From an uncultured Chloroflexota bacterium (GTDB taxonomy: Bacteria; Chloroflexota; Dehalococcoidia; Lucifugimonadales; CAJXCD01), in the NCBI GenBank assembly GCA_913051545.1, contig CAJXCD010000002.1:55991-119990 (forward strand): 64,000 bases of DNA, given 5' to 3'. Position 1 is the stretch's first letter. Each line of letters starts with the position of its first letter. Positions 7,238 through 20,856 of this stretch are shown here, one piece after another. A program made the translations under genes and the position numbers. The notes beneath the pieces are model-generated. The model was not told the origin of the DNA. It ran no database searches and saw only the letters and a program-made list of their open reading frames with translations.

Positions 7238-8611
7238 ATGGCGGCCGAGTTCCGAAAATTACCCAGCGTAGATAGTATCCTGTCGGATGAGAGGATAAAG
7301 GATCTTAGTGATAAATACTCTCGCCTAGTAGTAGTTTCGGTTGTTAGAACTCAACTCGATTATGCAAGGAAATTATTAAAGGAGGGTGGTCACTTACTTG
7401 AAGTCGAAGAGCTTGTGACATCAGTTTTAGATAGTGTAAATCAACATTGGTTTCCATCACCTATCCAAGTTATTAATGCTACCGGCGTTATTTTACATAC
7501 CAATCTTGGGCGCGCTCCTTTGTCTATTGAGGCGTTGGATTCCATCCGTCAGTCAAGTATGGGTTACAGTGACTTGGAATTCGATACCGGTACCGGACGT
7601 AGAGGTTCACGACACTCCTACGCAGCAAGAATTTTGTCCCATCTAACTGGTTCCGAGTCCGCTATCGTAGTAAACAACAATGCATCTGCAATTATGTTAG
7701 GACTAGTAGCTATAGCATCTGGGTCAGAAGTTATTGTCTCTCGCGGGGAGTCTCTTGAAATAGGTGGTGGGTTCCGCATTCCGGACGTTTTAAAACAAAG
7801 TGGTGCTACTCTGATAGAGGTTGGAACTACAAACCGCACTTACGTTAACGATTATGAGGATGCCGTATCTGATCGCACTGGGGCGATTTTGTCTGTGCAC
7901 TCCAGTAACTTTAAAGTTACTGGATTCACGCATTCACCATCTCTATTAGAATTGGTAAACCTTGGTCGTAAACATAACATTCCCGTTCTTCATGACCTGG
8001 GAAGTGGTTCATTGATTGACACTTCGTTATTCGGCTTAGCTCATGAGCCAATGCCTCAGGAGAGTATTGCCGCGGGAGCGTCACTATCCTTCTTTTCCGG
8101 GGACAAGTTACTAGGTGGTCCACAAGCGGGAATTATAGTAGGGGGTGAAGAGTATGTGTCGAAAGTTGCTAATCATCCTATAGCTAGAGCTGTTAGGATA
8201 GACAAACTTAGTTTATCAGCCCTTACTGCCACGCTCCTTGCGTATTTGAGAGACGATGTTATCTCAGTAGTTCCTGTGTGGGCAATGATTTCTGAAAAAG
8301 TTGATGCAATTGGTGATAGGGCAAGAAATTGGAATCGGATCTTGGGAAATAAATATGAGGTTGTTGAAGGTTATTCAACTGTAGGAGGAGGGAGTCTGCC
8401 TGATCAACAGCTTCCTACTTGGTTGCTATCCATAGACCCAAGTCCTGACGGGTCAGATTCTTTAAGTGCCGCTTTGAGGAATGCTTATAAACCTGTTATA
8501 TCTAGAATTGAAAACGATCGAATATTGCTAGACCCTCGTACAGTTTTGCATGACCAAGATGACGATCTGCTAGATGTAATAAAATCGGTGTTGCTAAGAA
8601 CACAGTCCTAA
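7238..8611 (+). CDS. selA: L-seryl-tRNA(Sec) selenium transferase
   Basis: INATGVILHTNLGRAPL, VNNNA, EVGTTNRT, PLP lysine FSGDKLLGGPQAG. Start moved to ATG 7238, which follows GGAGG. Confidence 0.95.
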   Translation: MAAEFRKLPSVDSILSDERIKDLSDKYSRLVVVSVVRTQLDYARKLLKEGGHLLEVEELVTSVLDSVNQHWFPSPIQVINATGVILHTNLGRAPLSIEALDSIRQSSMGYSDLEFDTGTGRRGSRHSYAARILSHLTGSESAIVVNNNASAIMLGLVAIASGSEVIVSRGESLEIGGGFRIPDVLKQSGATLIEVGTTNRTYVNDYEDAVSDRTGAILSVHSSNFKVTGFTHSPSLLELVNLGRKHNIPVLHDLGSGSLIDTSLFGLAHEPMPQESIAAGASLSFFSGDKLLGGPQAGIIVGGEEYVSKVANHPIARAVRIDKLSLSALTATLLAYLRDDVISVVPVWAMISEKVDAIGDRARNWNRILGNKYEVVEGYSTVGGGSLPDQQLPTWLLSIDPSPDGSDSLSAALRNAYKPVISRIENDRILLDPRTVLHDQDDDLLDVIKSVLLRTQS

Positions 8612-18617: not shown

Positions 18618-19151
18618 ATGATTAATTTTGTATTTAATAGTAGAATCCATACCATGAATATAGAGATCAACTATTGCCCGCGCTGTGGTAATAAACTGGT
18701 TAACAAGGGTGCTTCTGTACGATCTAGACCATCGTGTACAGATTGTGGGTATGTGGTGTATCTAGATCCGAAGCTTGCTACGGTGGTACTGATTTCGGTA
18801 GGTGACGAATTGGTTTTAGTCCGGCGAGCAATAGAGCCGCAAATAGGACGCTGGAGTTATCCTGGAGGATATGTAGATCGTGGAGAAACAGTAGAGGCAG
18901 CAGCCGTACGTGAGGTGAAAGAAGAAACGACTTTGGATGTTAGCCTCACTGGATTTATAGGTCTTTACTCAAGTTCTAATAGGCCGGTTGTTATAGCAGC
19001 ATATTCTGCTGAGGTGATAGGTGGCACTCCATCCGCAGGAGAAGAAGTTCAGGAGATCTCTTTATTTAGACCATCAGATTTACCGGAAATGCCTTTCCCG
19101 CATGACGATCAAATTTTAGCGGATTGGTATTTACTAACAGATGATGGCTAG
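18618..19151 (+). CDS. Nudix hydrolase with N-terminal zinc ribbon (start may be 18654)
   Basis: YCPRCG...CTDCG and Nudix box GGYVDRGETVEAAAVREVKEET. Confidence 0.9.
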   Translation: MINFVFNSRIHTMNIEINYCPRCGNKLVNKGASVRSRPSCTDCGYVVYLDPKLATVVLISVGDELVLVRRAIEPQIGRWSYPGGYVDRGETVEAAAVREVKEETTLDVSLTGFIGLYSSSNRPVVIAAYSAEVIGGTPSAGEEVQEISLFRPSDLPEMPFPHDDQILADWYLLTDDG

Positions 19152-19600
19152 GTGTCTATCTGGTTTACGGATCTAACGGTAATATCAATAGGAATAGTTT
19201 TTTCCAATATCCTGTGTATACGGCACCGGCTTGCTATGTAATTCATCCTGTCCAACTGTTCTGAATTAAGGTCAGAGGTTATCTCAATGTCCATTTGGAT
19301 TCGATCATAAAAACCTTTATTGACTTCCTCTGAATCGCCAGAGGGCCCTTGATAAAATTGATCATGAGTGCATTTGATAACGAGTGAATATATGTCCCAG
19401 ATTTTTCTCCTCGCGTACAGGAGGAGTGTCATCGATGTTCAGGTGCTTAAGGAAGCTAAAAGGACTTCAAATGGACTGGGTCCTTTGCTGCCTCCTGAGG
19501 TCTTGAATTCATCTGTGACAAAGGTGTGATGTGGAGTTTCCGCGATGTGTTGCATGTCCCGCATATTTCGCACAGTAACTGTGTGTGATTCCGTCTTCAT
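19148..19600 (-). CDS. OsmC-family protein with in-frame UGA at codon 54 (predicted selenocysteine), 150 aa
   Basis: ATG 19600 with GAGGGG SD. Reads MKTESH...GPSPFEVLLASLST-UGA(19441-19439)-TSMTLLLYARRK...SRCRIHRIL. The UGA aligns with the first conserved Cys of OsmC proteins (GP.P.ELLLA.L..CTSMT..MYARRK). selA is in the window. Confidence 0.85.
19407..19426 (-). promoter_or_regulatory. Putative bacterial SECIS hairpin
   Basis: mRNA reads UGA-12 nt-CUCCUC-CUGUACGC-GAGGAG: a perfect 6-bp stem with a G-containing loop just downstream of the UGA. Confidence 0.65.
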
Positions 19601-19608
19601 AAAACCCC

Positions 19609-20856
19609 TCATATATTTCTTGTTATTTTGTCTTTTTTCACGAGATCATATTTTAGTCGTTGTAGAGCCAATATCGCTATTATAGCTATCAAACTAATAC
19701 TACTAAATCCAATTACCCATTTGTATGATTCCTGAGAAATATCTAGTATAGTCCCGAAGGTTATTGGACCCAAAACGGCTCCCAAGAGTCCCAATGAAGC
19801 TTGTACTGCCATAGCTGAACCTATCTTCTCCTTAGGTGTTGAGTCTAGTATGCCACTGGTGTATATGGCAGAATCTGCTGCTGTTGACCAACCATAGACT
19901 ATTAAAATTACACCTATCAAAGGCCACGGGAAACCTCCCGCCCAACCAATTAGCAATGAGCATATACCACTAATAGCGAATATTCTTATTGCTGATGTTA
20001 GACGACCCCATTTGTCTGATATCGCACCTCCCATTACTGGTCCCAGAGCTCCTAGAGTCAGTGCTATACCTGCAACAGTGGAGCCGATAGCTTCCCCATT
20101 TTCAATCCCCTGGTTAATTAAAATACTTCCAAGCAATATCGGTAGTCCCATTCTAACGCTATATAATTGGAAGGCATGTAAGGAATACCCGAATATAAAA
20201 TACTTAACTTGGCGGATTTTTAGTACGGAAAGATCGAGTTTGCCCGGCGTTTCTGTGTGGGGTTTGACAGGTGAGTGTGATCGTATAAGTATGTATAACA
20301 CAGGTAAGCCAATAATAGATATAAGAGATAGTAAGAGATATGCTTGTCTCCATTCTAATGTGGTTAAGAGTGCTCCGGTTAAAGCCATAGATATGCTGTG
20401 GGCGCCATACTGAGCAGTTACAAATATACCTGTCGATATTCCTGTGTATTGAGGATCAAATCGTTCCGATATGATCCTTACACCAGGCATGTACATCCCA
20501 ACTAAACCAACCCCGCATATTCCTCTGAGTACGATGGCAATTATCATATTTTCCGTAATTATTGGGAATAAGATATGAGTTATTATCGAAAGAATTGCTG
20601 ATCCAAAAAAAACGGGTTTTGGTCCTACACGATCGGTTAATGGAATTATGAACAGTGCAGATATAAGATATCCAGCTAGATACGCAGAATAAACTACTCC
20701 TGCTTGGAAGTTATTTAAACTCCATTCGTCTTGAATATATCGTAAGGCGGCTACATAGCTGGATATTGGAAGTAAAAGCATAAAAAAAGAAAGCGATAAT
20801 AGTATTAACCATAAAATGTCTTTGCGTGCCACTTTATTTACGCCGTTCATTATCAT
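19609..20856 (-). CDS. MFS transporter
   Basis: About 12 TM segments, LTDRVGPK and GGAISDKWGR motif A loops. Confidence 0.88.
   Translation of the reverse strand: MIMNGVNKVARKDILWLILLSLSFFMLLLPISSYVAALRYIQDEWSLNNFQAGVVYSAYLAGYLISALFIIPLTDRVGPKPVFFGSAILSIITHILFPIITENMIIAIVLRGICGVGLVGMYMPGVRIISERFDPQYTGISTGIFVTAQYGAHSISMALTGALLTTLEWRQAYLLLSLISIIGLPVLYILIRSHSPVKPHTETPGKLDLSVLKIRQVKYFIFGYSLHAFQLYSVRMGLPILLGSILINQGIENGEAIGSTVAGIALTLGALGPVMGGAISDKWGRLTSAIRIFAISGICSLLIGWAGGFPWPLIGVILIVYGWSTAADSAIYTSGILDSTPKEKIGSAMAVQASLGLLGAVLGPITFGTILDISQESYKWVIGFSSISLIAIIAILALQRLKYDLVKKDKITRNI

Follow-up and report, generated by a model that had tools for sequence, protein, structure and literature searches.

The stretch analysed here (the window, 64,000 nucleotides of contig CAJXCD010000002.1 from an uncultured Chloroflexota bacterium of the class Dehalococcoidia) carries on its minus strand two short open reading frames (ORFs) in the same frame, one of 94 amino acids (aa) at 19148..19432 and one of 57 aa at 19439..19612. 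When TGA was translated as U, positions 19148..19612 became a single frame of 154 aa in which the one U is U58 and there are no further stops. Translation from a second ATG, at 19600, yields a protein of 150 aa, and this form, running on the minus strand from ATG 19600 to the TAG stop at 19150-19148 (19148..19600), is the predicted coding sequence of an OsmC-family selenoprotein, as supported by a PF02566 match and by alignments in which the N-termini of relatives line up with the 19600 start. The ATG at 19612 is an alternative start (19148..19612, minus strand, 154 aa). An element resembling a Shine-Dalgarno (SD) sequence, GAGGGG at 19605..19610 on the same strand, ends 4 nt ahead of ATG 19600 and overlaps the stop codon of an upstream transporter gene. 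The read-through translation thus bore out two proposals of a first-pass annotation of this DNA, namely that the 94-aa ORF is the C-terminal part of a 150-aa OsmC protein and that the upstream frame, with its ATG and SD, is interrupted only by UGA. The same annotation had anticipated that standard pipelines would truncate the gene, and it is as fragments of 57 aa and 94 aa that public catalogues hold it.

The in-frame UGA, predicted to encode selenocysteine (Sec), lies at 19439..19441 on the minus strand in the context LASLST-U-TSMT and corresponds to U54 of the 150-aa protein or U58 of the 154-aa protein. It falls in the first conserved Cys column of the family, the peroxidatic position. The second conserved Cys, presumed to be the resolving one, is encoded at 19223..19225 on the same strand (C126 or C130, in the context SRCRIH). 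All 21 full-length homologues in the alignment (137-166 aa) have Cys at the U column, and the second Cys column is likewise invariant, in agreement with the earlier suggestion that the UGA replaces the first active-site Cys and that the second is kept. Taken together, the sequence evidence described below indicates, with a probability of roughly 90%, that the two short ORFs belong to a single gene, which encodes a small redox enzyme of the OsmC type with UGA-encoded Sec in place of the catalytic Cys.

Membership in the OsmC family was evident from the PF02566 match, which covers residues 40-144 (E 2.2e-13, 50.9 bits against a cut-off of 27.5) and profile positions 1-99 of 100. Because the whole domain is covered, the OsmC domain spans the TGA. 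No second PF02566 match was found in the assembled genome, so that the window's gene is its only one. Homologues are named in databases 'putative redox protein' or 'uncharacterized OsmC-like protein', and the clade to which they and the window protein belong is marked by the motifs S/T-U-T-x-x-T...Y-x-R-R-K and R-C-P/R-V/I-H. A profile of this clade matched the C-terminal domain of PDB entry 9wo1_A with an E-value of 4.5e-49, with both Cys aligned, whereas classical OsmC/Ohr structures matched it weakly (E 8.5e-6 to 7e-3). In the clade profile both the U and the C130 columns align with Cys residues of solved OsmC-like proteins, the latter with the Cys of their C-P-V motif. A search of the literature found no published function for any member of the clade and no paper on PDB 9wo1, in keeping with the remark of the first-pass annotation that OsmC-like selenoproteins are little characterised.

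Conservation of the TGA was examined in two samples of genomes. In the first, the protein was used to search 40 genomes of the same order, all from different families, of which 10 gave a match. Seven of these carry one in-frame TGA, which translation places in exactly the same column, and one carries Cys; the other two matches were a Cys form with a frame break (genome G006) and a weak match in which the column was not read (G009). In the second, 151 genomes of the order were searched with a profile, and 37 had a match at E ≤ 1e-10. Of the 32 matches scoring more than 100 bits, 26 show a single TGA and six show none (G011, G265, G293, G299, G242 and G260). The TGA lies in the same column in all 24 of the TGA-bearing loci that were fetched, including locus L147; genomes G273 and G304, also listed with a TGA, were left outside this 24-locus check. 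Eight aligned relatives are 29-38% identical to the window protein and every one of their frames is clean; six of the eight start at ATG, L029 starts at TTG, and only TTG candidates were found for the Cys form L031.

Closer relatives were found in public databases as fragments cut at the same codon: fragments of 94 aa that begin with MTLLLYARRK and are 76-89% identical to the window protein, and one of 57 aa that ends with LASLST and is 84% identical. Four independent studies of marine samples or seawater yielded contigs that span the site at 95-100% identity, and these vary at five other positions, none of which is within the TGA; the sequencing runs listed for this sequence include no RNA data set. 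Since the TGA occupies the same column in diverged relatives and is unchanged in these independent contigs, it can be neither a recent nonsense mutation nor an artefact of assembly. The first-pass annotation had named TGT or TGC in all close relatives, with no conservation of a hairpin, as the pattern expected of a recent nonsense mutation; 26 of the 32 strong matches instead have TGA, and the hairpin was found to be kept through compensatory changes, as described below.

Cys forms of the clade are widespread. Among the matches listed in a pattern search, 598 of 600 stretches encode relatives, which span many phyla. Of these at least 598 relatives, the best 80 loci from other species comprised 68 with TGY, two with TGA and 10 that could not be parsed by the pattern, and these 80 lean to Cys forms because one of the two search patterns contains Cys. 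One locus of genome G006 (L038 / L035, G006:C12:21965-22329) has TGC at the Sec column and a retained downstream hairpin (UUUUCC/GGAGAA); its frame is lost three codons on and contains a run of N. It could represent a broken or wrongly assembled copy in which Sec was recently replaced by Cys.

By definition, a bacterial selenocysteine insertion sequence (SECIS) is a stem-loop that follows the UGA at a short distance and carries G/U in its apical loop. A SECIS-like stem-loop lies at 19400..19433 on the minus strand of the window, with a predicted folding energy of -10.8 kcal/mol. Its upper stem pairs 19426-19421 with 19412-19407 (CUCCUC/GAGGAG), begins 12 nt after the UGA and closes the loop CUGUACGC (19420-19413), so that the 6-bp hairpin predicted in the first-pass annotation is present at 19426-19407; a weak outer helix of 3 bp pairs 19433-19431 with 19402-19400. 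In its distance from the UGA and in its loop CUGUACGC the element agrees with the bacterial definition. Relatives have a stem-loop at the same position, built from different stems.

Because the register of the stem differs among sequences (the positions of a pair add up to 50, 51 or 54), stems were counted sequence by sequence, with Cys forms as controls, and not against a single consensus. An uninterrupted stem with a loop enclosing nt 24-26 was scored in 25 distinct Sec sequences, which comprised 23 from the order, one from a Dehalococcoidia metagenome-assembled genome (MAG) and one from a Gemmatimonas MAG, with L147 unscored. A stem of at least 6 bp was found in 21 of the 25 Sec forms versus 10 of 69 distinct Cys forms, and in none of the five Cys forms that belong to the same order or class. 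The remaining Sec forms have 5 bp in two cases (the GC-rich UCGGC/GCCGA) and 3 bp in two (L142, which is bulged, and L067). The loop always contains G-U-A, derived from Leu/Met-Tyr codons.

At least eight stem sequences occupy this same position among the Sec forms, including CUCCUC/GAGGAG, UCCUCC/GGAGGA, UUCUCC/GGAGAA, UCGGC/GCCGA, CUCCUCAU/AUGAGGAG, CUCCUGAU/GUCAGGAG, UUCUUUU/AAAAGAA and GCCGCGC/GCGCGGC. Some of the changes between stems are synonymous on one arm and make up for an amino-acid change on the other, as in the I-L-L...K-R-K form with UUCUUUU/AAAAGAA, while others alter residues on both arms, as in the F-R-L...A-D-R form with UCGGC/GCCGA.

The energy, resampling and Cys-form counts were made with 21 Sec sequences, L134, L142, L143 and L153 having been dropped by a filter. 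The median local minimum free energy (nt 13-42) was -9.9 kcal/mol in Sec forms versus -6.1 kcal/mol in Cys forms, despite the lower GC content of the Sec forms (53% vs 61%; Mann-Whitney p 2e-5, uncorrected for relatedness). For the 20 sequences whose stems reach 5 bp or longer, synonymous resampling (500 draws each) matched the observed stem length 1-124 times; for L067, with a 3-bp stem, it did so 280 times. No single sequence is decisive, and the support for the hairpin, as judged from these comparisons, is its recurrence across relatives. Selenoproteins of the NCBIfam family NF041052 from the same class have a hairpin at the same distance from the UGA, with GGUAC-type loops, and serve as a positive control for the elements accepted by SelB of this lineage.

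The genome from which the window was taken is a draft of 1.86 Mb in 31 contigs, estimated to be 92% complete with a contamination of 3.1%. The selenocysteine synthase gene, selA, is located in the window itself at 7250..8584 on the plus strand (G000:C2:63240-64574; TIGR00474, 526.8 bits against a cut-off of 267.9), at a measured distance of 10.9 kb from the OsmC gene, close to the 11 kb or so noted at first. Elsewhere in the assembly, selB was identified with 315 bits (339 bits when a second matched stretch in the same frame is included) against a cut-off of 242. For selD, which is also present above its cut-off, two matches, at G000:C3:95668-96591 and G000:C31:5-814, each contain one in-frame TGA, and the C3 copy reads NCAG-U-ASK. 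The second selD is on a 3.2-kb contig (C31) and could represent a duplicated gene, a variant from another strain or contaminating DNA.

Of the two genes that the first-pass annotation had named for confirmation, selB and selC, the former was therefore found, together with selA and a Sec-containing selD, and searches of this 92%-complete draft did not recover the latter, which encodes tRNA-Sec. All Rfam RF01852 hits in the assembly were tRNA-Ser or tRNA-Leu. ARAGORN reported no tRNA-Sec in the assembly at default settings and only noise at lowered thresholds, a search of the assembly for an anticodon-loop plus T-loop pattern gave two hits, neither of which is a tRNA, and blastn of the assembly with tRNA-Sec sequences from relatives gave nothing. 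A candidate suggested by synteny was also rejected: the gene adjacent to selC in three relatives matches the region C4:140.8-141.1 kb, and there is no tRNA there. The ARAGORN calls for the assembly, which cover 43 anticodon types, include no ordinary tRNA-Tyr either, indicating that the tRNA set of the draft is incomplete.

In the relatives the machinery is more fully represented. A clear tRNA-Sec (66-73 bits) was found in all five near-complete relatives that carry the TGA form, and 25 of the 26 TGA-form genomes yielded selB, the one exception (G024) being 81% complete. Across the order, selB exceeded the cut-off in 138 of 151 genomes; in 12 of the other 13 there was no selB match at the E-value threshold, and these include the Cys-form genomes G242 and G260. 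From these profile matches the Sec trait appears nearly universal in the lineage.

It is proposed that SelB and Sec-tRNA(Sec) would decode the UGA at 19439-19441 as Sec, guided by the stem-loop that starts 12 nt downstream. The arms of this stem would be formed by the Leu-Leu and Arg-Arg codons of a conserved protein motif, L-L-L-Y-x-R-R-K, and the loop would hold the G-U-A of the Leu-Tyr codons, so that one stretch of mRNA would serve both as SECIS and as coding sequence. The Sec residue would stand where the OsmC/Ohr fold has its first conserved Cys, and in the Ohr and OsmC enzymes this Cys is the peroxidatic one. The chemistry of the Ohr/OsmC reductases is the model for the steps proposed here: the selenolate would attack a hydroperoxide or a similar oxidant, Cys126/130 would then resolve the resulting selenenic acid to a selenenylsulfide, and a dithiol reductant would regenerate the enzyme. 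By analogy with these enzymes, OsmC/Ohr peroxidase-like chemistry is the most likely activity of the window protein. We infer the insertion of Sec from the conservation of the UGA, the hairpin and the machinery genes, and the substrate and the reductant named here are likewise putative.

Several results weigh against this interpretation. The window hairpin is short, at 6 bp and -10.8 kcal/mol, and it is not special by energy when compared with shuffled sequences (z-scores 0.06 and -0.92); a stem of at least 6 bp arose in 46 of 500 synonymous resamplings of the window sequence, and the lower helix found in most relatives (GGCCAU/AUGGCC) is reduced to 3 bp. None of the comparisons between Sec and Cys forms was corrected for relatedness. 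The failure to detect selC in the draft counts on the same side. Furthermore, the window protein forms a long branch in the maximum-likelihood (ML) tree and departs from the clade at two motifs, with DEF in place of DEP and C-R-I-H in place of C-P-V/I-H; this combination suggests that its activity may have diverged.

The alternative that survives best accepts the gene as a true selenoprotein and disputes only the peroxidase function, the Sec/Cys pair serving instead some other redox or transfer reaction tied to the cargo of the adjacent major facilitator superfamily (MFS) transporter, such as reducing or detoxifying a small electrophile, or handling a sulfur or selenium species. The lack of a published function for the clade, its distance from characterised OsmC/Ohr proteins (E 1e-5 or weaker against 1vla, 3eer and 1ukk) and the recurrence of the MFS pairing in nine of 31 other loci are all compatible with this possibility. 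On the other hand, the two columns of catalytic Cys in the OsmC/Ohr fold are both retained, and the MFS protein, which has no specific family match, gives no clue to a substrate. Given the distance of the clade from characterised members and the absence of a function in print, a different redox chemistry is considered unlikely, and yet it is the alternative to be taken most seriously.

A pseudogene, in which the codon for the catalytic Cys has mutated to a stop and left two dead fragments, is far less probable. Such a reading would account for the 57-aa and 94-aa pieces that are all public gene callers show, for the long branch and the two altered motifs of the window copy, and for the missing selC. 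It is contradicted by the shared column of the TGA in all 24 of the TGA-bearing loci fetched, which come from different families of the order and in which both halves are open and conserved; by relatives at 76-89% identity that have both halves intact and are cut at the same codon; by the maintenance of the hairpin through compensatory changes; by the unchanged TGA in four independent marine data sets; and by the fact that the window gene is the only OsmC-family gene of the genome. The last possibility, that the TGA is read by general readthrough or under an alternative genetic code, can be given almost no weight, as the openness of the frame apart from the TGA is not specific to it and it conflicts with the position of the TGA in a Cys column, with the presence of dedicated Sec machinery, and with the use of TGA as the terminator of 199 of the 878 open frames of at least 300 codons in the genome, and of the adjacent MFS gene as well.

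The predicted selenoprotein has relatives among families that have been described previously. An OsmC-like selenoprotein has been in print since the 2005 Sargasso Sea study of Zhang, Fomenko and Gladyshev, which lists three sequences with the motif UXXT and the assignment COG1765 (PMC1088965). The same family with the same motif appears in the GOS (Global Ocean Sampling) study (PMC2398784), in the Olavius symbiont study (PMC1976440), and in reviews from 2022 (PMC9312934) and 2026 (PMC13188914). A search of the literature found no paper that treats selenocysteine in SAR202.

The UxxT family is modelled by NCBIfam NF041052, 'OsmC-related (seleno)protein' (OsmC_like_Se), with a curated cut-off of 95 bits. 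In the class, 17 of 201 genomes have matches over this cut-off, with true members scoring 98-170 bits, and 17 of the 18 matches concerned have one TGA, the eighteenth being a C-terminal fragment at a contig end that stops short of the Sec column. The window protein scored 46.8 bits and nine relatives scored 34.4-59.3 bits, all below the cut-off, and one further relative (L036) gave no NF041052 match at E 0.001. No member of NF041052 was found in the window's own genome. The two groups share the OsmC fold (PF02566; COG1765/YhfA type), Sec at the first Cys column, a retained second Cys, a marine origin within the same class, and a hairpin at about the same distance from the UGA with a GUA-containing loop. 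They differ in motif: the window protein has U-T-S-M-T, with Thr at +1 and +4, and R-C-R-I-H, whereas NF041052 has G-F-U-L-L-T (UxxT) and G-C-Y/F. The UxxT motif is thus absent from the window protein, and true members of NF041052 read U-L-L-T, U-T-L-A or U-E-M-T. By its scores and motifs, the window gene is assigned to a sister clade of the UxxT family that falls outside curated NF041052 membership.

Two other groups provide useful comparisons. Cys orthologues (140-147 aa, together with the C-terminal domain of 9wo1_A) belong to the same clade and share D-E-P, L-Y-A-R-R-K-x-W-P-L and R-C-P-V-H, but they have TGC or TGT in place of the Sec codon and 59 of 69 lack a stem of at least 6 bp. PDB 9wo1_A itself ('Osmotically inducible protein C', 400 aa) differs in being a fusion with an N-terminal part of about 260 aa. 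The Ohr/OsmC organic hydroperoxide reductases (PDB 1vla, 1ukk and 3eer) share the superfamily and the two conserved Cys columns, but are distantly related in sequence, and the window protein has Sec where they have the peroxidatic Cys.

The genes on either side of the OsmC gene were also considered. Directly upstream on the minus strand, at 19609..20856, lies a gene for an MFS_1 transporter of 415 aa (PF07690, E 9e-44), for which no specific transporter family above the cut-off was found. Its TGA stop at 19611-19609 overlaps both the ATG at 19612 (as ATGA) and the SD-like GAGGGG at 19610-19605, in line with the overlap of the MFS stop and the OsmC SD that had been noted at the outset. A homologous MFS gene (47-53% identity) is located directly upstream on the same strand in the nine loci mentioned above, one of which is a Cys-form locus. 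In eight of them (L147 being left out) the MFS stop lies between just inside the OsmC frame and about 130 nt upstream of the likely start. It is likely, from this arrangement, that the OsmC gene is co-transcribed with the MFS gene in one operon, and the ATGA overlap together with the overlap of the SD and the stop suggests that the two are translationally coupled.

On the other side, a convergent gene for a NUDIX hydrolase (PF00293) occupies 18618..19151 on the plus strand, and its stop overlaps the OsmC stop by 4 nt. A convergent NUDIX neighbour is found downstream in 13 of the 31 other loci. No terminator-like sites were found around the OsmC gene, and promoter-like sites there were no commoner than in shuffled sequences.

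The distribution of Sec and Cys forms was mapped on a quick ML tree of 90 sequences, which is unrooted, is based on a short protein, and has the window sequence on a long branch. The Sec label required five changes by parsimony versus a mean of 19.3 for shuffled labels, and well-supported branches force at least two. One Sec form from outside the Chloroflexota (L081, from the Gemmatimonas MAG, positions 2612-2665) branches within the Cys forms of the tree. At the same position it has an unrelated, GC-rich stem (GCCGCGC/GCGCGGC), and its placement suggests an independent Cys-to-Sec switch or a transfer.

It is possible, at somewhat less than even odds, that the clade gained Sec apart from the UxxT family and that its SECIS was built from codons of the older L-L-Y-x-R-R-K motif. 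Leu codons (CUN/UUR) and Arg codons (AGR/CGN) are naturally complementary, and in this motif their spacing from the codon of the catalytic Cys would suit a SECIS. Such a pre-adaptation, if true, would explain repeated switching between Cys and Sec in the family, and the stems of at least 6 bp that already exist in 10 of 69 Cys forms bear on this idea.

With regard to what the finding means for the family, it is a well-supported re-annotation and an incremental one, as it describes a sister clade of a known selenoprotein family and not a new kind of system. Because these genes are cut in public catalogues and NF041052 does not reach the clade, the same error is expected to be repeated across many marine genomes of the Dehalococcoidia/SAR202 type, and a hidden Markov model for the clade would recover the sole OsmC-family redox enzyme of such genomes. 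The gene would add one predicted Sec-dependent redox enzyme to a lineage in which the Sec trait appears nearly universal. It also offers a clear case of a predicted SECIS overlaid on a conserved protein motif, and a conserved Leu-Leu...Arg-Arg SECIS of this kind may have eased repeated Cys/Sec switching in the family.

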